Shown here in pieces: positions 7,478 through 54,807 of a stretch of DNA of 64,000 nt. Where the stretch lies: positions 1,699 to 65,698 of the forward strand of contig CALRHH010000004.1 of NCBI GenBank assembly GCA_943359395.1, written 5' to 3'. This DNA comes from Candidatus Nomurabacteria bacterium (GTDB lineage: Bacteria; Patescibacteriota; Minisyncoccia; Phycocordibacterales; UBA2100). Position 1 is the first letter of the stretch, and each line of letters opens with the position of its first letter. The notes beneath the pieces were generated by a model. It saw only the letters and a program-made list of their open reading frames with translations, was not told where the DNA came from and made no database searches. The position numbers were made by a program, and so were the translations under genes.

Positions 7478-8594
7478 TCGGATACATCGCCTTTATTTCT
7501 TTTGCGAGATAGGGGTTCCACATTGCTCCCGTTGCGGTCATGACAACATCTGCCCCCGCTTCGCGGTATTCCTTGAAGTCCTGCGGAACGGTAACTCCGC
7601 CGCATCCGACTATCGCAAACTTCCCGCCCATCTTTTCGCGCGCTGCTTTCAGACGATGCGTCATGTCGAGACCTGCCCACTTTATCGCCGCACCACACAC
7701 GCCGCTCCGCTCGCGTTTCGGTCCCGGAAGCGCTTGATTTCCCTTCTCATCTAGGATGACCGCGGAAATCGTATTAATAGCGGATATCGCGTGTCCATAT
7801 TTTTCGGCGATGTGTGCGAGTCGTTCAATATCCGCATCGTCCTTGTAGTAGCCAACTTTTAGTATGAGGGGAAGCTTCTTTATCTTGGCGCGTACAGCCT
7901 CGCACACACGCTCGGTCATGTACAGATTGTAACAAACTAAACCTTCATTGCCGATATTTGGGCATGAAAGGTTTGCCTCCAGTATCGGGGCACTCGTCCG
8001 AGCGGCGAGCGCGGCTGCCTGTGCAAAGTCCGCAACGAATTCATCTTCTGTCTGCTTCTCTTTCACCGTGCCCATAAAACTCATGACCATGACTTGCCAC
8101 TTGTGAGCGTACACCACCGCCTTCTTCGCGTCTTCAAGCCATGTCTCGGAGGGACGTGATGGAACTCCGAAAGAATTTGTAATCGAGAGCGGTTCTGAAT
8201 ACACGGGAACAGCGGTAACGGGCCTGCTTGCTTTCTCGAGAGGCAAATCACCTTCGACCTTGACGCCGAGTACGTTTGGAAAAGGGTGGCACGGGAATTC
8301 ATTTGCACGGACCGTCTTGTACACCGCGATATCGAATCCTTTATCGAACGCTCCTTTCACGTAGCCGCTGTTCAATAGAGGGCCAGCGGGAATGCCGAGT
8401 GGATACGCGATTTTCTGACCGAGAAAATCGAAGCGCGGTCTACCGTCTGGCACCACCACCCCATCGGCAAAGCCGCCGAAGGGACCTTGCTTATAGTTGT
8501 CTTCATAGGACTTGAGAGGGTCGTAGAAAGGAGTCTGCAACATAGCTTCAGAATACCACAATCTCATTTTCCGGCACTTGGTATTTTCTTCCAC
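7470..8594 (-). CDS. Dihydroorotate dehydrogenase / dihydropyrimidine dehydrogenase family FMN TIM-barrel oxidoreductase.
   Basis: FAIVGCGGVTVPQDFKEYREAGADVVMTATG C-terminus and a LKVGYY flavin-binding region. Confidence 0.6.
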   Translation of the reverse strand: MEENTKCRKMRLWYSEAMLQTPFYDPLKSYEDNYKQGPFGGFADGVVVPDGRPRFDFLGQKIAYPLGIPAGPLLNSGYVKGAFDKGFDIAVYKTVRANEFPCHPFPNVLGVKVEGDLPLEKASRPVTAVPVYSEPLSITNSFGVPSRPSETWLEDAKKAVVYAHKWQVMVMSFMGTVKEKQTEDEFVADFAQAAALAARTSAPILEANLSCPNIGNEGLVCYNLYMTERVCEAVRAKIKKLPLILKVGYYKDDADIERLAHIAEKYGHAISAINTISAVILDEKGNQALPGPKRERSGVCGAAIKWAGLDMTHRLKAAREKMGGKFAIVGCGGVTVPQDFKEYREAGADVVMTATGAMWNPYLAKEIKAMYPNA

Positions 8595-9169
8595 TTATTC
8601 GCGTCCATATGCCATTGCGCTACATTTGCCTTCTGCAGCCTGTCCCAGAGCGTCTTCGCGGTCTTAGTATACAATTTCTCATCACGCACGAATTTCCGCA
8701 TTTTTCTCCATTTTTTTGGGAGTTTGTGCCCTTGCTCCTCAAACTCCTTGAGCTCGAGGTCAATATCAAGGTTGTCGGCATCTTTCACTATCTTTGCTTC
8801 TATCGTGTCTCGCCTCTCGTACTGAGCATGGATATCTTCAAAGTCGGGAAACGAAGTACCTACAAAAAGGTCACGTGCTGCGTGAGCGTCATCTGTATTC
8901 GAATATACCTTGTGCACATATGCGAGGTCGGCGGTGCGCGTTTCGGGGAGGTCGTGCGCGAGCGCCATCTTGATGATGATAGCCTCGTCTCCTTTCTTTT
9001 CTTTACGCGCAATAAGAAGAGCGAGAAAAATGACGCGCATCGTGTGCTCAAGGTTACTTGCGCAGGAAACCCCCAAGTGCTGAATCCAGGCACGCGGGAT
9101 ATTTCGGAGCGAGCCTATCTCAAAGAGGAATTCGGTGTCCCTATCCTTCATGTGATTTTGCGAAATCAT
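8564..9169 (-). CDS. HD-domain phosphohydrolase (YfbR-like 5'-deoxynucleotidase).
   Basis: HTMRV...HDLPE...DADNLD HD motifs. Confidence 0.7.
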   Translation of the reverse strand: MISQNHMKDRDTEFLFEIGSLRNIPRAWIQHLGVSCASNLEHTMRVIFLALLIARKEKKGDEAIIIKMALAHDLPETRTADLAYVHKVYSNTDDAHAARDLFVGTSFPDFEDIHAQYERRDTIEAKIVKDADNLDIDLELKEFEEQGHKLPKKWRKMRKFVRDEKLYTKTAKTLWDRLQKANVAQWHMDANKWKKIPSAGK

Positions 9170-9233
9170 GCCGCGTAATCGTCAATTTAGACGCGGCTCA
9201 GTATACCCCCACAGCTCGTTGAGCGCGAAGCGA

Positions 9234-17373: not shown

Positions 17374-18888
17374 CTAGAGTCCTCCGAGCAACGCGTTCAG
17401 CTTCGCTCGTGTATTCGGACCAACGTAGCCGTATCCCGAGTCTCCTTTTTTCGCGATGCTGTATTTCACTTGGAATTTCTGTACGGCACGCGCAGTCGCC
17501 GGCCCGAAGTAGATCGTCTCACGTCCCAGAGAACCTACGCCGCTTGCCGCGACTTGCGTGCCCGCATCGGAATTGAGGATTTTCTGGAGCACCCGGACAT
17601 CTTCGCCGATTGTTCCCAAAGTAAGACCCCGTGCGAGCGGACGAGAAGAAAATTCCGACTCTACAATCGTTCCTTGCTCAGCCACCTTTTTGAGTACGTC
17701 CCAGATGGCGGGGTCCTGTCCGCCGTCGAGCTTGAATATCGAGACGCCGCGCACCCCGAGCTTCTTCGCGAGATCAATCTTCTGCTGGACCGATTGCGCA
17801 TCTGGCCAATCAAGGAGACGAAACCCGAGATGCGAATTGTACGTATCAGCGTACGCCGTGGCAGCAAGGGCAGCGAAAAGTGCCGATGTAGGACCGAGAG
17901 AGACGGGCGTGGTGCTCGTTGCAGCATTTGCAACATACGTGAAGTACATTTCCCCTGCCGTGTTACGTTGCGGTGTAATACCATACTGTGCGGCGATATC
18001 TGTCGCATACCGAGGATTGAATACCCAGAGGATACCGTACGAATATTCTTTGCCTTCATACGCCGTGACGTCATATTCGTAACCGTATGTCGGAACGCCG
18101 ATAAGTATTTTGCTTTTAGAAATATCTTTCATCATAAACCGGATGCTTTTTTCTACCCAAGCGGGGTCAGCAACCGGGGCGTAGAGTTGCGTAGAAGAAG
18201 CCGCTGTGGCCACAAGCTTGCGGTCGATGCCTTGCTGGTCGTAGGTCATAATACGTACTCTGTCACAGTACTTGTTGATTTCTTTCAGATCATTGGCGTA
18301 AACACCGGCATTCTCCGGAAGAGATGTCCCCCAATACTGATCTTCGAGCGGTGTACGAGACTCGACGGAACACATAATCATTTTGGAGCCCATGCGCATA
18401 TCCAGGCCCTTCAAAAAAGTGGAGAAGTGATCCTTGTCTTTTGCATACTTGCCCTCAAAGTCGATATCGATACCATCGTAGCCGCCCTCCTTCACAAGTG
18501 CGACGATACGGTCCTCAAGTGCAATACGTGACTTCTGATTGCTCAATAATTGGTGTAGGGTTTCTCCCCCACTCGACATAACGGTTGGAATGACACGAAC
18601 ATTTTTTGCCCTGGCAGTGGCGATAAACGAGAGCCAAGGCTCAGCCTCAAGCGCACCGTTGTCACGCAAGGTCCCGTCGTTGCGAATTGTGTAGACGAAC
18701 GGATTCACTTCTGTGAGCGTATCTAAATGGGGCAAGGTATCAGCCGTCCCCGTAGCGACGCGCCAGTATGGTATCCAGCCTGTCACTTCGAACGGTGCTT
18801 CCGTCGCGGCTGACGCCGTCAGAGGAACGGTAAAAACGAGTGCGCACAGAAAAACAAAAGAATTTCTCATACCCCGTGAGAGAAACAC
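17374..18888 (-). CDS. Secreted glycoside hydrolase family 18 (chitinase / peptidoglycan-hydrolase-like) with a C-terminal peptidoglycan-binding domain.
   Basis: GGYDGIDIDFE (DxxDxDxE) GH18 catalytic motif and a C-terminal VRVLQKILNSDAGTQV..ARAVQKFQ PG_binding_1-like repeat. The true start is more likely the ATG at 18871, which gives the signal peptide MRNSFVFLCALVFTVPLTASAA. A repeat element overlaps the region just upstream. Confidence 0.8.
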   Translation of the reverse strand: MFLSRGMRNSFVFLCALVFTVPLTASAATEAPFEVTGWIPYWRVATGTADTLPHLDTLTEVNPFVYTIRNDGTLRDNGALEAEPWLSFIATARAKNVRVIPTVMSSGGETLHQLLSNQKSRIALEDRIVALVKEGGYDGIDIDFEGKYAKDKDHFSTFLKGLDMRMGSKMIMCSVESRTPLEDQYWGTSLPENAGVYANDLKEINKYCDRVRIMTYDQQGIDRKLVATAASSTQLYAPVADPAWVEKSIRFMMKDISKSKILIGVPTYGYEYDVTAYEGKEYSYGILWVFNPRYATDIAAQYGITPQRNTAGEMYFTYVANAATSTTPVSLGPTSALFAALAATAYADTYNSHLGFRLLDWPDAQSVQQKIDLAKKLGVRGVSIFKLDGGQDPAIWDVLKKVAEQGTIVESEFSSRPLARGLTLGTIGEDVRVLQKILNSDAGTQVAASGVGSLGRETIYFGPATARAVQKFQVKYSIAKKGDSGYGYVGPNTRAKLNALLGGL

Positions 18889-18970
18889 GCCGAACGATTC
18901 AGCCGAAAACTTGGTGTATTCAACAGTATATGTGTATCAAGCATATAAATTTGATTCTCTCATGGGGTCA
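18870..18970. repeat. Inverted pair of the family-1 motif at and upstream of the GH18 start.
   Basis: ATACCCCGTGAGAGA at 18870..18884 and TCTCTCATGGGGT at 18956..18968. Confidence 0.7.
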
Positions 18971-21779: not shown

Positions 21780-22664
21780 TTATGACCGAGAAAGCTTCGA
21801 ATTATCGGTCAGGAGCAAAACGCCAAGAAGAAACGGGGGCAGAGAGGCAAGCTGCCAAATGTTTGGAAGCTGATGTAGGATAATCCATGCCAGTACCAAG
21901 GTCACTAGAGGCGTAATGCTCACGAGTGCGCTCGCTTTTGTCACAGATACTCGGTGAATGCCCTCAATCCAGAGCATCTTTTCAAATCCAAGAAAAACTA
22001 CCCCGTTCAAGAGAAGGAGCGGCAACGCCGCCGATACACCACCCACCGTACCACTGACGTTAAAAAAATACAAAAATGCAAATAAAACTATCGCGGACAG
22101 CGCGCTGCGTAAAAACATGATGCTATCGCTTGAAGCAATTTTGCGAGCCTTCTGTTGGAAATAATTCCCGAACGGTGCGATAAAGGTCGCACAAAGAATA
22201 AATACATCTCCCGCGTTTATACCTCCGAAGTCACGTCCGAGAATGATGAGAGCGCCGGCAATCATGAGAGCGGCCCCCAGTATATGTGCCGGTAAGATGC
22301 CCTCCTTGCGATAGATATTAAAAAAGACGAAGGATGTGCATATTTGAAAGAGAATAATGATGGAAACATTGCCCGGCGTCGAATATTTGAGACCGGAAAA
22401 ATAGAGGCCGTAAAAGAGTATCCCGATAAAAAAAGTGATGAGGGCACCGTATTTCCACAAGAGTGGATTCCGAAGCTCCATCCAGTGTTTACGATATGTG
22501 ATCAAGCATGCGAAAAAGGTAGCCGCAAACAACGTACTCCACGCAAGTGAAACGAAATTAGAGACCTGCGTATAGGTAAGGGTAACCCCGATGGGGAGAA
22601 AACCTCCGAGTGTCGCGGCTGAAAGTACGTAGAGATCCCCCTTCCGCGTCTCGGACCAGGTCAT
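21780..22664 (-). CDS. EamA/DMT-family transporter.
   Basis: About ten TM helices with two-lobed EamA-like organisation. Confidence 0.55.
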   Translation of the reverse strand: MTWSETRKGDLYVLSAATLGGFLPIGVTLTYTQVSNFVSLAWSTLFAATFFACLITYRKHWMELRNPLLWKYGALITFFIGILFYGLYFSGLKYSTPGNVSIIILFQICTSFVFFNIYRKEGILPAHILGAALMIAGALIILGRDFGGINAGDVFILCATFIAPFGNYFQQKARKIASSDSIMFLRSALSAIVLFAFLYFFNVSGTVGGVSAALPLLLLNGVVFLGFEKMLWIEGIHRVSVTKASALVSITPLVTLVLAWIILHQLPNIWQLASLPPFLLGVLLLTDNSKLSRS

Positions 22665-22671
22665 CGGGCAA

Positions 22672-22775
22672 GTATACCCCGTGAGATATGGACGATTTCA
22701 CGGCGAGGGAACCATGAACGCTCTGCAATTCAAGAAAGTCTACCAAAAGATAGCGTGTCTATCTCATGGGGTATA
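22672..22775. repeat. Inverted pair of the family-1 motif upstream of the EamA transporter start.
   Basis: GTATACCCCGTGAGATA at 22672..22688 and TATCTCATGGGGTATA at 22760..22775. Confidence 0.8.
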
Positions 22776-22781
22776 TCAACG

Positions 22782-29620: not shown

Positions 29621-30664
29621 TTAAGCTCCCCGAGAGACATTGGCGTATATCGAGAGCAGCGCAAACAGAAGGCTGAGCGACAGCGGTCCAAGGAAGATAC
29701 CGATGGGACCGAAGAACATGATACCGCCGAGAACCGCGAGGAGAACGAGGAGTGGGTGGAGGTGCATCCCGCTGCCGATGAGTTTGGGCGAAAGAAAGTT
29801 GTCGATGAGACCTACGGCGAGCGTTCCCCACGCGAGGAGTCCGATTGCCTGCGGCGTCGCTCCGGTAAAAAAGAGAAACGCGACTGCAGGAATAAAGACG
29901 AGCGAGGTGCCGACACCTGGAATGAGCGCCGCGAGGGCGGCCACAGTTCCCCACAGAACAGCGCTCGGCACCCTAAAAAGAGTGAGGCCAACTATTGAAA
30001 GGCCCCCCTGCACGAGCGCAATGGTGAGATTCCCCTTGATAACGGAGTTGACCGCGTGCTCAAGCCTGTCGAAAACACCCTCATCGTCCCTATCATTCAG
30101 AGGAGAAAGCTCGATGAGTATTTGTCGCACGCGCTTTCCGTCGCGCAAGAGGTAGTAGAGTGCGATAAAGAAAACAAAGAACGAGAGGAGGAGGGACGAG
30201 ATGCTTGAGAAAATATCGCCGGCATTTCCAGTAATCCACTGCAGTGCTTCCTTTGTATAGGTATCAATATTCGCCGAGACGTCCCGGGAAAATTCCCCGA
30301 TTCCGGGAACAACCCCGCCGAACGAGGCGTCAATTCGAAGGAAGAGTTCTGCGATGGTGCTCCGCCCGCCCGCCTCTTCAAGTGAGAAGTATACTTCACG
30401 CGCTTCATTTCCGACGAGCACTCCAACGAGAGCGAGCGGAAGAAGTATGAGAACGACACTTATGACAACCGTAAGCAGCGCGGCGATGCTTGGCCAACCG
30501 CCAAGAAGCTGGGACATTTTTCTATACAGTCCTTGAAGAACGACGGCAAACACCGCGGCGAGAATGAGAGGCTTCAAAAACGGCGAGAATATCAGCGCTA
30601 CAAGAACAATCGCCACTGCGAGTAGAACCATCAAGAAATACGGTCGCAGGCGCTCACCTTGCAT
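29621..30664 (-). CDS. AI-2E family transporter (PerM/UPF0118).
   Basis: Eight-TM topology with characteristic AI-2E spacing and a conserved G-rich C-terminal region. Confidence 0.8.
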   Translation of the reverse strand: MQGERLRPYFLMVLLAVAIVLVALIFSPFLKPLILAAVFAVVLQGLYRKMSQLLGGWPSIAALLTVVISVVLILLPLALVGVLVGNEAREVYFSLEEAGGRSTIAELFLRIDASFGGVVPGIGEFSRDVSANIDTYTKEALQWITGNAGDIFSSISSLLLSFFVFFIALYYLLRDGKRVRQILIELSPLNDRDDEGVFDRLEHAVNSVIKGNLTIALVQGGLSIVGLTLFRVPSAVLWGTVAALAALIPGVGTSLVFIPAVAFLFFTGATPQAIGLLAWGTLAVGLIDNFLSPKLIGSGMHLHPLLVLLAVLGGIMFFGPIGIFLGPLSLSLLFALLSIYANVSRGA

Positions 30665-30673
30665 ATAGGAGGA

Positions 30674-30741
30674 GTATACCCCGTGAGATAAACACTTCCA
30701 CCTTTTACTGTGGTTCGGACATTCCTATCTCACGGGGTATA
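30674..30741. repeat. Inverted pair of the family-1 motif GTATACCCCGTGAGATA with a 35-nt spacer, upstream of the AI-2E transporter start.
   Basis: GTATACCCCGTGAGATA at 30674..30690 and its exact reverse complement TATCTCACGGGGTATA at 30726..30741. Confidence 0.8.
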
Positions 30742-30780
30742 GCAAAAAGGAGCCCCCTCTGCCTTCCGGGTAATAAACAC

Positions 30781-51292: not shown

Positions 51293-51943
51293 CTATTGCT
51301 GTCCTACGCCGTCATCGACCCAGCGATACATATTCTCCGAAATGGTGAATGAACGCTCTTGAATAGGTCCGGTCTGCCATGTGACGGTCACCGTAACACG
51401 TATCTCGTCCATGCTCCCCGTCACCTGGTAGGCGTGTAGAGTCCGCGTGAAATATGTCGGTGTCCACGCACCCAGGTCATCGCCAAGCCCCGGATAGCCG
51501 TACAGAGTCAGGTTTGTCTGAAGTGGCGGACATGTTCCATTGCACCGAACGATGGCGGTCGACGCGTCTCCCTTGCGACCATCGATTGTAAACGGCTCAT
51601 TGAGTCGAGGAATGAGTCCGAAGATGTCCGGTGCCCCTTCAGCACTTCCCGCGATAACGAGAATTTGGGAATCTCGAATACTGCGCACAGCCTCGATTGC
51701 CTCCTGTGCAAGGTAGAAAGCCGTTATTTGGTCTCGCGCATAGTACGCAGAACCGAGACTTTTCGACGCGAGAGCCATCGGAGACACCACCGCGACAGAC
51801 AAGAGCATCACCGCGACAAGCGTCTCGATGAGAGTAAAACCAGCTTGTAGCTTGTAGCTTGTAGCTGACAGAGGCCAGAATCTTCTGAATTTTTTGCTTA
51901 CTACAAGCTGTAAGCTGTAAGCTGTAAGCTTGAATTCCATCAT
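51293..51943 (-). CDS. Type IV pilin-like protein (pseudopilin) with a long leader.
   Basis: KLQAG|FTLIETLVAV prepilin motif. The leader contains a heptamer inverted repeat. Confidence 0.7.
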   Translation of the reverse strand: MMEFKLTAYSLQLVVSKKFRRFWPLSATSYKLQAGFTLIETLVAVMLLSVAVVSPMALASKSLGSAYYARDQITAFYLAQEAIEAVRSIRDSQILVIAGSAEGAPDIFGLIPRLNEPFTIDGRKGDASTAIVRCNGTCPPLQTNLTLYGYPGLGDDLGAWTPTYFTRTLHAYQVTGSMDEIRVTVTVTWQTGPIQERSFTISENMYRWVDDGVGQQ

Positions 51944-52648: not shown

Positions 52649-53344
52649 CTATTGTGAAGTCTCCCTTTGTACTGATATCTGACCGTTTGCCCCGACTATC
52701 ACACTCATGACATCGCCGCGGGGGGAGAGGAGAATAATTCGAGCGCTTTCAGCGCAAATGCCAGCGCCATAGACACATCCCACTCCGTTTGCACTTATCC
52801 ACGCGTCCGCCTCGGGACGTTTAAAAACAATGTCGAGCTCTGAGGCCGGGCTCACTCCCACGCAGGTAGCGGCGTCAGCTCCCTCAGGAGCGCAGAGACC
52901 GGATATTCTGTAACCATTACGAATAGTATACGGTGACGGAGAAACGTTCTCGTCGGGTGAATCGAAGAAGCCGTCCTTGTCGACATCCGCAAAAAGTTCG
53001 TAATGCAATGGGTCGTCGATATTGAAGTGCATACCGTACCCGGAGGAAAAATTTCCCGCCCCGTATCTCTGAACAGAGATGCCGAATACCTGCGCTTGCC
53101 GGACTGAAAGCGCCACATCGTAGGCCAGATTTTCAAGTTGTACAATTCCACCAAAGCGATTGTTGTTGACCAGCACTACGGACGTCACGACGATAATAAT
53201 CCCCGTCACGACTACGAGCTCGACCAAAGTAAACCCCGTTAGAGAGGCCCTTCGGGGTGCACGAGAAACCAAACCGTTTTTCTCTAACGGGGTAAAAGCC
53301 CGAAGACGTGAGAGGTGTCTATGCCGTAGAGTGATACGAACCAT
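52649..53344 (-). CDS. Type IV pilin-like protein (pseudopilin). The start is uncertain: the ORF extends to 53557, candidate starts are the ATG at 53344 and a TTG at 53252.
   Basis: RRASLTG|FTLVELVVVTG prepilin motif. The long ORF extension overlaps pilD and is unlikely to be translated. Confidence 0.6.
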   Translation of the reverse strand: MVRITLRHRHLSRLRAFTPLEKNGLVSRAPRRASLTGFTLVELVVVTGIIIVVTSVVLVNNNRFGGIVQLENLAYDVALSVRQAQVFGISVQRYGAGNFSSGYGMHFNIDDPLHYELFADVDKDGFFDSPDENVSPSPYTIRNGYRISGLCAPEGADAATCVGVSPASELDIVFKRPEADAWISANGVGCVYGAGICAESARIILLSPRGDVMSVIVGANGQISVQRETSQ

Positions 53345-54189
53345 ATGATGATGCAACTTAGAATGAGAAACGGACCAAATGGAATCTCGCTTTTCATTGT
53401 AAACCCTCCGCGGGGCTTTCCGCGCGAAGTTATCCCAAGTGTGTACAGCGCTTCTGCAATGTGCGGCAAAGGTAGAAGTATGAGTATGGACACGATGGCA
53501 CCCACGACAAATGCTCCGAAGACGGCAAGCAAGCCGAGAGCGGGACCGAGTAACCACCCGATGCCGAGGGCAAGCTTAGCATCCCCCAATCCCATCCATC
53601 TCCCACGGGAGAACAGCCACAAAGCAAAAAGTGGTGCGGCGACAACAGGTCCCGCAAAGATGAACCACAACAATGTGTACTCGTCCGAGAACGGCTGTAA
53701 AAATTGAGAAACGAATGCGAGTCCGGCGAACGCGTACACCCACTCGTCGGGGATTATCGTGTGTAATATATCGTAAGTGGTAATACATACGAAAACGGCA
53801 AGAACGCAAAGGTGTATGAGGATGAGCGCAACTCCGGGCAATGATAGACCGAGGGATGAGGAGCCAACCCAGAAACCCAAGAGTCCGAAAAGGAGTCCTG
53901 TCGCGGCCTCGACAAGCGGATACTGAACAGAGACGCGGCCTCGACACGCCCGGCATCTTCCTCCGAGCTCCAACCACGAGAAAACGGGTATCATGTCGTA
54001 CCATCGAAGTTGCGTGCCACAGCTCATACATCCACTTCGGCCGTTGAGAGAGCGAGCCCCGTGGCGCAGAATGACGACGTTGAGAAAACTCCCGACGATA
54101 AGGCCAAGAAGTCCGAAGAGAAGTCCGAAGCTCATTGGCTCACAGTATACCCCGTGGGATAAACGCATCAGCGAGACGAAGAGAATCAT
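53284..54189 (-). CDS. pilD: Prepilin peptidase (A24 family); the true start is probably the ATG at 54135.
   Basis: CMSCGTQLRWYDMIPVFSWLELGGRCRACRG zinc motif and a polytopic peptidase domain with catalytic aspartates. The N-terminal ORF extension overlaps a repeat element. Confidence 0.85.
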   Translation of the reverse strand: MILFVSLMRLSHGVYCEPMSFGLLFGLLGLIVGSFLNVVILRHGARSLNGRSGCMSCGTQLRWYDMIPVFSWLELGGRCRACRGRVSVQYPLVEAATGLLFGLLGFWVGSSSLGLSLPGVALILIHLCVLAVFVCITTYDILHTIIPDEWVYAFAGLAFVSQFLQPFSDEYTLLWFIFAGPVVAAPLFALWLFSRGRWMGLGDAKLALGIGWLLGPALGLLAVFGAFVVGAIVSILILLPLPHIAEALYTLGITSRGKPRGGFTMKSEIPFGPFLILSCIIIWFVSLYGIDTSHVFGLLPR

Positions 54190-54251
54190 ATCCTCATGAC
54201 GAACCTGGTGCGTCTAAGATACATCCACATTTCCTATCCCATGGGGTATAC
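54145..54251. repeat. Inverted pair of the family-1 motif upstream of pilD.
   Basis: GTATACCCCGTGGGATA at 54145..54161 and TATCCCATGGGGTATAC at 54235..54251. Confidence 0.75.
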
Positions 54252-54303
54252 AAGCAAAACACCGCGTCAGACACGGTGTTTTGCTTTCCGTACAGAAGCT
54301 AGA

Positions 54304-54807
54304 CTACGGTCTTACGTCGTAGACAACACCATCGGCGGACCCGTTGAATCCTCCGTTGACTGCGGTGAAGTCAGCGTTGGTCGTCCATGTACCACCGGTA
54401 CATTGGCTGTTTAGGACCGCATCGTAGTCGATGTCCGAGCTCAAAGCACTGTGACCAACCGTCTCAAGCTTGGCGCCCAAGTGATAGCTTGTGCAATTCG
54501 TGCCGCTCCCGATCGCCTCGTAAGCGTAGCTGAGGAGACTCAAAGGGTCTCTCGGTAGTGCGGAGATGAAACCATCAGCCACCAAGTCTGTTGCATATTG
54601 CGCCGACGTTGGATATTTGCTGTTCGCATCATAATAGAGCTCAAGAGCAAGCTGAATTTGCTTGATGTCGGAAACGCGGCGTGCATCTCGGCCCTTTTTA
54701 CGTGCACTATTCAACGAGGCAAGAACTATTGAGGAAAGGATACCGATAATGGCGATGACCACGAGGAGCTCTATCAAAGTGAAACCCTTCTTATAAGATG
54801 TCTTCAT
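54304..54807 (-). CDS. Type IV major pilin (PilA-like).
   Basis: MKTSYKKG|FTLIELLVVIAIIGILSS, a canonical short leader and N-methyl-Phe site. Confidence 0.85.
   Translation of the reverse strand: MKTSYKKGFTLIELLVVIAIIGILSSIVLASLNSARKKGRDARRVSDIKQIQLALELYYDANSKYPTSAQYATDLVADGFISALPRDPLSLLSYAYEAIGSGTNCTSYHLGAKLETVGHSALSSDIDYDAVLNSQCTGGTWTTNADFTAVNGGFNGSADGVVYDVRP

Follow-up and report, generated by a model that had tools for sequence, protein, structure and literature searches.

A probable gene-less copy of a small mobile element in the -10 box of a leaderless pilD gene

The inverted pair upstream of the prepilin peptidase gene pilD, in the 64-kb stretch of DNA analysed here (the window), most likely bounds a 99-bp copy, devoid of genes, of a small mobile element. 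Insertion would have occurred within the -10 hexamer of leaderless pilD, at a T-NN-A target whose central AT was duplicated.

The pilD promoter region and the start of pilD

Direct reading of the sequence confirmed the two arms of the original prediction, GTATACCCCGTGGGATA at 54145-54161 and TATCCCATGGGGTATAC at 54235-54251. An inverted-repeat search describes the pair (I11) as 17-nt arms that are 94% complementary and lie 73 nt apart, with a single non-complementary position that reads as G·T on the plus strand and as A·C on the strand of the gene. The features of the locus are as follows.

53284-54135, minus strand: pilD (prepilin peptidase), proposed corrected coordinates, 283 aa
54136-54189, minus strand: 18 apparently spurious codons that lengthen the annotated 301-aa ORF at its N-terminus; they consist of element DNA plus promoter spacer
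54144-54149, minus strand: -10-like hexamer TATACT, made up of the element's last base T, the duplicated AT and the flanking ACT
54145-54161, plus strand: gene-proximal arm as originally defined, comprising the target T, the duplicated AT and the 13-nt arm
54147-54148, no strand: one copy of the 2-bp AT target duplication; the other copy is at 54248-54249, and the flanks are T 54146 and A 54250 (target T-NN-A)
54149-54247, no strand: element proper, copy 3 (99 bp), reading ACCCCGTGGGATA, a 73-nt unconserved interior and TATCCCATGGGGT on the plus strand; not in the orthologous L199 site, whose flanks are identical
54235-54251, plus strand: distal arm as originally defined
54252-54286, minus strand: terminator-like hairpin (pair I10) of the upstream pilin gene (54304-54807), directly abutting the distal arm

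With 54149-54247 and one AT removed, the locus reads TTTTGCTTGTATACTGTGAGCCAATG, which is identical at 26/26 nt to the pilin-pilD spacer of the relative L199; this empty site carries AT once (...GCTTGT-AT-ACTGTGAGCCAATG). The element is likewise absent from L200, L001, L003 and L205, where the terminator is followed by TATACT, 6 nt and the ATG, with the hexamer in the (T)TATACT form in relatives. The same order of hairpin and then TATACT is thus found in these four and in L199. In the window, TATACT of pilD is followed by an 8-nt spacer (54136-54143) and the ATG. The element begins with A and ends with T, and insertion would thus have remade T-NN-A at both junctions, so that TATACT, 8 nt and the ATG survive. 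Judging from this arrangement, expression of pilD from Met 54135 probably persists. The insertion would also have parted the pilD promoter from the pilin terminator and supplied an in-frame ATG, which gene callers take as the start.

The listed pilD ORF does start at 54189 and run through the proximal arm (..SHGVYCEP..), as had been pointed out, and the proposal that this start is an artefact is borne out by Pfam: position 1 of the A24_N_bact profile aligns to residue 27 of the long, 301-aa ORF. The alternative start, ATG 54135, lies 9 nt from the 17-nt arm, also as claimed. It was further said to give a canonical PilD N-terminus, and most of the 60 homologue N-termini compared, from Kaiserbacteria and other Patescibacteria, begin M-x(3-7)-FGLFGLIVGSFLNV, as does the product read from Met 54135. 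That product carries A24_N_bact and Peptidase_A24 domains, its N-terminus lying 4-8 residues before FGLIVGSFLNV. Alignment of PilD homologues turned up few longer annotated N-termini, and these bear no likeness to the window other than VYCEP in P0006, which is a translated -10 box plus spacer. None of the homologues compared shares the 18-codon extension, and the original prediction, which had staked the shorter protein on this point, therefore stands. Moreover, these 18 codons derive from the interior and the proximal arm of the inserted element, which L199, L200, L001, L003 and L205 all lack. These comparisons support a pilD start at Met 54135. The protein resembles other members of the PilD (peptidase A24) family in having both domains, a place in a type IV pilus cluster and, from Met 54135, the canonical N-terminus. 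It differs in that its public annotation, P0001 (301 aa), appears to be 18 residues too long N-terminally, and we correct that gene model here.

The repeat family in the window and beyond

The original prediction assigned the pilD locus to one repeat family together with loci at 22672-22776 and 30674-30742. A search with the arm 17-mer and the inverted-repeat search agree on this, and all three loci are real; the count of three, however, was too low, as the window has five copies. The two additional ones lie at 18871-18968 and, with an arm variant, at 53233-53293, at the 3' end of pilD. Allowing up to 3 mismatches, the arm 17-mer matches the window 6 times, compared to 0.04 expected from shuffles (0/100 shuffles reached 6), and the paired-arm pattern matches 3 times, compared to 0.00 expected. 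Along with copy 3, the copies and one gene that they affect are the following.

22676-22772, no strand: copy 1 (97 bp), T-AT-element-AT-A; 7 nt plus a -10 box before the ATG of an EamA transporter gene (21780-22664, minus)
30678-30738, no strand: copy 2 (61 bp), T-AT-element-AT-A; before the ATG of an AI-2E transporter gene (29621-30664, minus)
18871-18968, no strand: copy 4 (98 bp, GAGAGA arm variant), lacking a clean duplication; abuts the ATG of a GH18/PG-binding gene (17374-18870, minus)
53233-53293, minus strand: copy 5 (61 bp), arms ACCCCGTTAGAGA and TCTCTAACGGGGT, with TT (AA on the plus strand) duplicated; site empty in L001 and L200, filled at the same position in L205
52649-53344, minus strand: prepilin-like gene, leader with copy 5, MVRITLRHRHLSRLRA-FTPLEKNGLVSRAPRRASLTG-FTLVELVV

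Copy 5 contributes to two genes at once. It supplies the stop codon of pilD, whose last residues (PR*) derive from the inserted repeat, and together with its duplication it lengthens the leader of the overlapping prepilin-like gene by 63 nt, in frame. Insertions of repeats can thus leave Patescibacteria genes with false starts, with false C-termini or with longer leader peptides. Between the window and L205, the arms at this orthologous site are kept at 26/26 bases and the interior at ~57%, as counted by eye. Such conservation of the arms while the interior drifted suggests some constraint on the arms in situ, which plain selfish mobility does not explain. The interiors of the five window copies are mutually unrelated, which counts against a recent burst from one master copy.

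In 17/63 window ORFs, a TAnnnT hexamer ends 5-9 nt before the start, a -10-only context; a scan with the sigma-70 consensus misses this type of promoter. GC skew is too weak for any inference on strand bias relative to replication. No arm-type GIY-YIG gene lies within the 64 kb.

Beyond the window, 13-nt arms with the consensus ACCCCRTGAGATA were found in >115 loci from Patescibacteria, Planctomycetota, Verrucomicrobiota and others. Total lengths peak at 95-102 bp in a genome scan whose spacer setting, N{50,80}, biases the result toward total lengths of 72-102 bp. ORF-less copies fall into size classes of ~33, 61 and 97 bp, and short hairpin forms of 32-40 nt with the same arms are present in L074, L040, L177, L031 and L077. 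Arms are conserved and interiors vary between genomes, with interiors common to several copies within some of them (L010/L028/L071, L029/L034, L057 and L015/L068). An origin of the interiors as copies of nearby host DNA was rejected, the only matches being to other copies of the element. The arms themselves co-vary: position 9 is G/G in 9 cases and mixed in 1, and position 12 is G/G in 10, A/A in 3 and mixed in 3. ORF starts peak 11-13 nt after GGGGT, a leaderless context. A rule by which CACGGGG arms face the gene and CATGGGG arms face away was rejected, with 36% versus 38% of arms facing an ORF start. A viral scan gave only 3 matches, indicating that the element is essentially cellular.

Evidence for insertion extends to these other copies. 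Flanking dinucleotides are identical in 59/86 copies with Patescibacteria-type flanks, and among non-palindromic dinucleotides direct matches outnumber inverted ones by 31 to 9. A T occupies position -3 in 91% of arms, even though the search pattern left it free. Nine tandem copies are joined by exactly 2 nt. Copies with flanks of the Planctomycetota/Verrucomicrobiota type (TTC..AAA or TTT..GAA) show no duplication. Filled and empty sites were compared by aligning reconstructed empty sites (MAFFT misplaced the large gap), and the empty site holds the dinucleotide once in each pair: GT in L018 versus L076 and in L026 versus L106, and AA/TT in copy 5 versus L001 and L200. In short, several hallmarks of a MITE were observed: inverted repeats at the ends, no ORF, a length <300 bp, a duplicated target, and relatives in which the site is empty.

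The ORF-less copies have a partner whose ends match theirs; its product is a GIY-YIG nuclease, an enzyme type not known among transposases. When the GIY-YIG protein alone served as seed for a metagenome scan, 80 loci were returned. In 69 of these, one arm lies upstream of the ORF, at a distance of ≤250 nt, and a second is located at its 3' end or just beyond. In most of these bracketed loci, the left arm lies 15-45 nt before the ATG and the right arm covers the last 4 codons; the latter encodes the final residues YLTG, and its last T begins the stop codon. Arms and gene together measure 271-288 bp. The ORF, of ~86 aa (83-89 aa), consists of a single domain (Pfam GIY-YIG, E about 1e-17). The nearest solved structures are the UPF0213 proteins 1YWL and 1ZG2 (E about 1e-6), a tblastn search against plasmids gave only distant UPF0213/YazA homologues and thereby no link to Ssn, and NCBIfam has no model specific to the nuclease. 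Among 54 distinct units, 15 double changes in the arms are Watson-Crick-compensated versus 1 uncompensated double change. ORF-bearing units interrupt tyrosine-recombinase genes, intact paralogues of which show the empty site. Given that the same arms bracket the GIY-YIG gene in other genomes, the window copies would be ORF-less derivatives, related to the units as MITEs are to an insertion sequence.

Alternative readings and a candidate mechanism

Several other readings of the pair were weighed. The arms might serve as operators, with the pilD promoter looped or wrapped by a transcription factor bound to them and the family marking a regulon of envelope genes. All window copies adjoin start codons of genes for membrane or secreted proteins (EamA, AI-2E, PilD, GH18, prepilin), arm spacing is fairly constant at ~86 bp, arms but not interiors are conserved, and the arms of copy 5 are intact at the orthologous L205 site despite long divergence. 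We nevertheless consider operators very unlikely. The pair is either there or missing as one precise 99+2-bp block with a duplicated dinucleotide, and a symmetric operator pair predicts inverted flanks, while direct ones are seen. Arms also occur inside coding sequences, in tandem with 2-nt junctions, in unrelated phyla and bracketing a nuclease gene. Co-variation of the arms would suit an RNA hairpin in the pilin-pilD transcript, such as an RNase III site, an attenuator or a 5'-UTR structure, and a 17-bp stem can indeed form on either strand (-40.4 and -41.5 kcal/mol). This reading is highly improbable, however. The -10 box lies downstream of the element, so a leaderless pilD mRNA would lack it, and it is the strand of the gene that bears the A·C mismatch, the other strand having G·T. 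An A-T pair at arm position 6, which pairing by itself would permit, was seen 0 times versus ~16 expected. Rfam gave no match to the element at gathering scores, where tRNAs alone were found, and only noise up to E 10. A structured-RNA interior was rejected, as interiors have no excess structure (mean z = -0.15 over 120).

Two further alternatives were considered. In one, the pair is the miniature derivative of an IS30-like or IS630-like element, one of the classical DDE insertion sequences that make 2-bp duplications, with the GIY-YIG gene as a passenger. Traits typical of a MITE are indeed present: inverted repeats at the ends, the duplicated dinucleotide, a palindromic target and insertion beside existing ends. 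A long autonomous element with a classical transposase between its arms was sought and none was found: in ~1 Mb around the copies, no transposase lies between an arm pair, and the only long arm pairs are one 270-bp GIY-YIG unit and one poor match of 2,980 bp. The regular bracketing of the GIY-YIG ORF (69/80), with its last four codons forming an arm, also speaks against a passenger, and a DDE origin seems to us very unlikely. In the other, inverted repeats that flank a short segment before a pilus-biogenesis gene would let a promoter invert and thereby switch pilus genes in phase variation. We regard this as extremely improbable. The segments measure 35-73 bp, very short for recombinase-mediated inversion, their interiors are unrelated and have no conserved promoter, the flanking dinucleotides are direct repeats, and a casual rather than systematic look beside the copies noticed no recombinase.

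These data leave the gene-less mobile element as the preferred reading, for which the nuclease units suggest a mechanism. The two arms would pair into a stem on single-stranded DNA, and the cognate GIY-YIG nuclease, which may resemble the Ssn ssDNA nucleases, might recognise this stem and cut where it begins. A duplication of 2 bp would be in keeping with the 2-nt 3' overhangs that enzymes of the GIY-YIG type typically leave, and host repair would complete the insertion. On this model, the nuclease would drive movement of the element. Against it stands that these enzymes hydrolyse DNA and form no covalent intermediates, so that the nuclease alone cannot perform strand transfer. Tentatively, and giving the idea slightly less than an even chance, we propose that the ~280-bp unit of arms and ORF transposes autonomously by a mechanism of a new class, which would place it among the smallest transposable elements known. 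The sole protein of the unit, an ~86-aa Ssn-like GIY-YIG nuclease, would recognise the stem that the element's own ends form on ssDNA and cut at T-NN-A, with host repair to follow; copies of 33, 61 and 97 bp, including the window's five, would be non-autonomous derivatives.

If this is true, the primary role of the Ssn family would be that of the engine of a selfish element, which would account for the multiplication of its repeats. Mobility can be tested directly with the present family, which offers clean filled and empty sites, the T-NN-A target, the 2-bp duplication and the ORF-less derivatives. A mobile element of this kind could have the -10 box of leaderless genes as its target and restore it, and such rebuilding may explain the persistence of these repeats in genomes that are very small and densely packed with genes. 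The 13-nt arms and their nucleases are also candidates for new ssDNA-cutting specificities.

Comparison with known systems

A literature search covering the arm sequences, MITEs in Patescibacteria, and GIY-YIG proteins linked to inverted repeats or to target duplications gave no account of the element. Rickettsia palindromic elements (RPE) are palindromic repeats that can sit in-frame in protein-coding genes, as copy 5 does in the prepilin leader, but they differ in sequence, size (100-150 bp) and lineage. Correia elements of Neisseria are ~100-150 bp long, with terminal inverted repeats and a 2-bp (TA) duplication; they lie beside genes, and their ends can form -10 boxes. Their sequence and host range are unrelated, however, and they are not known to encode, or to be associated with, a nuclease that has the same ends.

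REPINs (REP doublets that form hairpins) with their RAYT transposases, and IS200/IS605 with its ORF-less derivatives, also resemble the present family. In each case, inverted short repeats with a less conserved spacer form a hairpin, and the copies are non-autonomous and tied to a nuclease gene flanked by repeats. Single-stranded DNA hairpins are thought to be the substrate in the REPIN and IS200/IS605 systems. The enzyme here, in contrast, is a GIY-YIG hydrolase and not an HUH Y1 transposase: the ORFs found between arms are GIY-YIG, with no associated HUH Y1 (RAYT) transposase among them. A GTAG/CTAC motif is absent, and IS200/IS605 makes no target duplication.

The closest known system is that of the Ssn GIY-YIG nucleases, site-specific ssDNA nucleases tied to hairpin repeats (NTS/SRM) (Chenal 2025, Nat Commun, PMC11893778); their clade (cd10448) may also include our nuclease. 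That study left the spread of the repeats open and did not show mobility, and its authors note that NTS-ssnA-NTS resembles an insertion sequence (PMC11893778). Both systems have a single-domain GIY-YIG protein of ~90 aa whose gene is flanked 5' and 3' by inverted-repeat sequences, and in both the repeats are dispersed in the genome, mostly intergenic and near membrane-protein genes. They differ in the repeats themselves. The SRM consensus HGTCWYN(0-2)YYVSBRHN(0-5)WNVSBRGN(0-2)RNCYNB is not fitted by the 13-nt arms, and its regular expression, which recognises an NTS example, matched nowhere in the window and only twice in related loci totalling 1.04 Mb. The Ssn gene lies between two self-contained hairpins of 20-50 nt, whereas here the ORF is inside one long-range hairpin with a coding right arm, and the ORF-less copies form the ~33-, 61- and 97-bp classes. 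Window copies measure 61-99 bp with loops of 35-73 nt, and the family also has the hairpin forms of 32-40 nt. Hosts in the present case are Patescibacteria and Planctomycetota/Verrucomicrobiota. Finally, insertion polymorphism and a 2-bp duplication, neither of them reported in that study, are shown for the family described here.

The inverted pair at the pilD promoter

Two 17-mers lie upstream of pilD at 54145-54161 and 54235-54251, exactly where the original prediction placed them. They are 94% complementary and separated by 73 nt, the sole non-complementary position being a G·T on the plus strand (A·C on the gene strand). This pair had also been assigned, as third locus, to one family with 22672-22776 and 30674-30742. 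Match counts bear out the grouping: the 17-mer with up to three mismatches is found 6 times in the window (0.04 expected), and the paired-arm pattern 3 times (0.00 expected). Two further copies (4 and 5) were found.

Copies of the element in the window
22676-22772: copy 1
30678-30738: copy 2
54149-54247: copy 3, upstream of pilD
18871-18968: copy 4, arms ending in GAGAGA
53233-53293: copy 5, at the pilD 3' end, arms ACCCCGTTAGAGA and TCTCTAACGGGGT

Copies 1-4 sit between co-directional minus-strand genes, with a start codon 0-9 nt from one arm, and copy 5 overlaps both the pilD 3' end and the beginning of the gene that follows. The neighbors code for a GH18/peptidoglycan-binding protein, an EamA transporter, an AI-2E transporter, PilD and a prepilin-like protein.

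The pair is absent from four syntenic relatives (L001, L003, L200 and L205; PilD 71-77% identical), in which the order is pilin terminator hairpin, (T)TATACT, 6 nt, ATG. The nearest flank match, locus L199, reads ...GCGGGGTTTTTGCTTGTATACTGTGAGCCAATG; the window minus 54149-54247 and one AT reads ...GCGGTGTTTTGCTTGTATACTGTGAGCCAATG, with the last 26 nt identical to L199. From the relatives without the pair and the 26-nt match to L199, we conclude that the pair forms both termini of a 99-bp insertion and that 2 bp (AT) were duplicated at T-AT-A. Insertion took place within the hexamer TATACT, which is rebuilt as T + AT + ACT (54144-54149 on the minus strand, 8 nt from the ATG) because the element terminates in T. 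Of the 63 window ORFs, 17 have a TAnnnT that ends 5-9 nt ahead of the start codon, and most of these follow an intergenic gap. As this pattern is a signature of leaderless transcription, the pilD promoter core most likely survived the insertion. Copy 4 has no duplicated bases at its flanks, and GGGGT runs straight into the ATG of the GH18 gene, so this gene cannot use the rebuilt -10 arrangement of the other copies; the interior of copy 4 holds a TATACT of its own. Elsewhere, GGGGGTATACT at ~9198-9210 (minus strand) precedes the ATG of ORF 8564-9169 by ~30 nt; a full arm is not recognisable there, and the sequence may be either the decayed end of an element or just a promoter native to the site.

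Copy 3 supplies the false ATG (54189) with which the 301-aa pilD ORF begins. Met 54135 had been proposed instead as giving a canonical PilD N-terminus, and alignment with homologues favors it: position 1 of Pfam A24_N_bact corresponds to residue 27 of the long ORF, and MSFGLLFGLLGLIVGSFLNV, read from ATG 54135, matches the M-x(3-7)-FGLFGLIVGSFLNV of most of the 60 homologue N-termini listed. None of the homologues listed shares the extension, and the few longer annotated N-termini are mutually unrelated. These observations support the proposed start. The one piece common to the extension and a longer N-terminus, VYCEP in homologue P0006, results from translating GTATACTGTGAGCCA (-10 box plus spacer). 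The public 301-aa model P0001 bears the false-start artefact.

Copy 5 (61 bp) provides the pilD stop codon, such that PilD ends in ..VFGLLPR, compared to ..VFELLLWSSS in L001. With its duplication it adds 63 nt, or 21 codons, in-frame to the leader of the overlapping prepilin-like gene, changing RLRA/FTLVEL to RLRAFTPLEKNGLVSRAPRRASLTG/FTLVEL. Because LTG is encoded by the right arm, a canonical G/F prepilin cleavage site is predicted to stand before FTLVEL. The flanks are T-AA-[element]-AA-A, and the sequence is uninterrupted in L001 and L200. L205 (PilD 75% identical) carries copy 5 at the identical site; both arms match the window's at 13/13 positions, compared to ~57% of the 35-nt interior by our own count, and this sequence contrast argues for in-situ constraint on the arms. 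At the same TTTT/A site, L199 (1548-1600) has a different sequence (ACCCAGTCAGTGAAATG...) replacing the empty site or copy 5, which may be another or a decayed insertion. A minor-pilin-like gene (ORF 51293-51943, minus strand) has a short repeat block, CAGCTTGTAGCTTGTAGCTTGTAG / CTACAAGCTGTAAGCTGTAAGCTG, at 51841-51924 in its unusually long leader, which reads MMEFKLTAYSLQLVVSKKFRRFWPLSATSYKLQAG/FTLIETL; its counterpart in L002 and L003 has a GIY-YIG domain fused in-frame before the prepilin cleavage site (..ASKSGKG/FTLIETL).

Distribution and arm co-variation

We scanned one genome per species with the pattern ACCCCRTGRGA-N50-80-TCYCAYGGGGT and obtained at least 115 stretches. Among the matches listed, most belong to Patescibacteria (Kaiser-, Sacchari-, Parcu-, Pacei-, Nomura-, Campbell-, Harrison- and Peregrinibacteria), and other hosts are Planctomycetota, Verrucomicrobiota, Bacteroidota, KSB1 and Nitrospirota; a few GC-rich matches from other phyla may be due to chance. 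Start-to-start arm spacing in the listed matches peaks sharply at 84-91 nt (total 95-102 bp), with a minor class at ~61 bp, and nine tandem copies among them are each joined by exactly 2 nt. Three separate loci of one Saccharibacteria genome (L010, L028, L071) each hold a head-to-tail dimer of the same 99-bp copy with a 2-nt join; either the dimer moves as a unit or insertion beside an existing end is favored.

Some positions left free in the search pattern are conserved, namely T at -3 in 91% and TA at arm positions 12 and 13 in ~90% of arms. Beyond arm position 13, no sequence conservation of the interior was seen across copies, and 120 interiors showed no folding excess (mean z = -0.15). 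Common interiors occur only between copies in some genomes or at orthologous sites. The two arms co-vary at position 9 (A/A 129, G/G 9, mixed 1) and position 12 (T/T 123, G/G 10, A/A 3, mixed 3). At position 6, A replaces G in at most one arm (49 + 45 asymmetric, 45 G/G, and no A/A versus ~16 expected); in the flank class of Planctomycetota and Verrucomicrobiota, the asymmetry is at position -1 instead (TTC vs TTT). The elements therefore have a built-in polarity.

In Planctomycetota-type genomes, ORF-less copies are situated within or next to short 5' pieces of Ser/Thr kinase genes. At L034 (3362-3462 and 6616-6716), L029, L090, L097 and L112, these fragments are decoy-like (MIGKTISHY..GGMGVV) and just upstream of full-length kinase genes, and at loci of this type the fragment, element and kinase are duplicated as one block.

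Nuclease-bearing units and insertion sites

In the KSB1 contig L066, an arm pair 270 nt apart encloses an 86-aa ORF. Phmmer relatives of this ORF lie beside arms at L057, L043, L100 (Peregrinibacteria) and L103, the last with the GTTAGAGA arm variant of window copy 5, and all of these proteins are GIY-YIG domains (E ~1e-16 to 1e-18). Their nearest solved structures are UPF0213 proteins (E ~1e-6). In L066 (3,115 bp), at least five copies, one of them the GIY-YIG unit, have inserted into an IS91-type transposase gene and a tyrosine-recombinase gene, splitting both.

A metagenome contig search seeded with an alignment of the GIY-YIG proteins alone gave 600 candidates, of which 590 were confirmed; 80 loci were kept. 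An arm lies ≤250 nt upstream of the ORF and a second at or just after its 3' end in 69 of these 80; in most of the 69, the left arm is 15-45 nt before the ATG and the right arm begins 11 nt before the match end. There, the right arm reads TAT CTC ACG GGG T, which specifies YLTG at the protein's C-terminus and begins the stop codon with its last base. Arm-to-arm length is 271-288 bp, most commonly 280-282. Across 54 distinct units, 15 double deviations from the arm consensus, at five positions, are Watson-Crick-compensated and one breaks pairing; for several of the compensated ones, a third-position substitution in a right-arm codon is silent and is mirrored by a change in the non-coding left arm. 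No nuclease gene of this type was found in the 64-kb window.

Empty sites document insertion. Filled L018 (AAAGT-GT-[element]-GT-AGCAGG) corresponds to syntenic empty L076 (AAAGTGTAACAG), and filled L026 (GAGT-GT-[element]-GT-AGCAAAG) to empty L106 (GAGTTTAGTTGAA). For several ORF-bearing units in tyrosine-recombinase genes, GGC CAT TC[unit]AAA GAC GTG AGC compares to GGG CAC AAA GAC GTG AGC in intact paralogues; units in L187, L189 and L192 share the same box II position, where the downstream sequence AAAGACGTGAGC is arm-like. With Patescibacteria-type flanks, 59 of 86 copies have an identical dinucleotide on both sides, and non-palindromic dinucleotides are direct in 31 and inverted in 9. 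The nearest ORF start peaks 11-13 nt past GGGGT for both arm variants. In Patescibacteria, the family therefore shows a general tendency to insert in leaderless -10 boxes, which arises either from target preference or from survival of tolerated insertions. Target duplication was not seen in the flank class TTC..AAA (30) / TTT..GAA (9), in which a further two bases per side appear to move with the element, the two on the right completing the nuclease stop codon as TAA or TGA.

Proposed mechanism and relation to known systems

Collectively, these data show that the pilD pair is an insertion whose ends are defined, whose target is T-NN-A and which carries a 2-bp duplication, that its ends are kept complementary, and that they are the ends of the nuclease-bearing unit found elsewhere. 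We consider it highly probable that the feature is both an insertion and an ORF-less derivative of that unit. In a plausible mechanism, the arms would pair on single-stranded DNA, and the cognate GIY-YIG nuclease would recognize the stem and cut at its base. Enzymes of the GIY-YIG type, I-TevI among them, typically leave 2-nt 3' overhangs. A staggered cut, T^NN^A, followed by fill-in would yield the 2-bp duplication; the TTC..AAA class would be the case in which the overhangs travel with the element instead. The host would supply ligation and repair. That the nuclease itself drives mobility strikes us as about evenly balanced.

REPINs with their RAYT transposases, Correia elements and Rickettsia palindromic elements resemble this repeat family. 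Our literature search found no description of these arms, nor of a GIY-YIG element that combines terminal inverted repeats with target duplications. Among described systems, the Ssn family comes closest. SsnA of N. meningitidis, a 94-aa single-domain GIY-YIG protein (CDD cd10448), binds the hairpin repeat NTS on single-stranded DNA only and cleaves just upstream of it (Chenal et al. 2025, PMC11893778). Genes of Ssn homologues in many phyla are flanked on both sides by 20-50-nt repeats, SRM, which reach up to hundreds of copies per genome, often near membrane-protein genes (PMC11893778). Chenal et al. likened NTS-ssnA-NTS to an insertion sequence, although mobility was not demonstrated there (PMC11893778). 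By analogy with Neisseria, the arms bracketing pilD (54149-54247 and 53233-53293) could, as a speculation, mark the locus for cleavage of incoming single-stranded DNA.

The pilD feature belongs, as an ORF-less member, to a widespread family of small mobile repeats linked to a miniature GIY-YIG nuclease. This family differs from Ssn in four ways. The published SRM consensus misses the arms (0 matches in the window, 2 in 1.04 Mb); the ORF lies within one long-range stem here, whereas the Ssn gene lies between two self-contained hairpins; the right arm forms part of the coding sequence; and ORF-less copies have 35-75-nt loops, although 32-40-nt hairpin forms with the same arms exist too. In the respects testable here the family otherwise works as Ssn does, and we classify it as a putative variant of the Ssn/hairpin-repeat kind.
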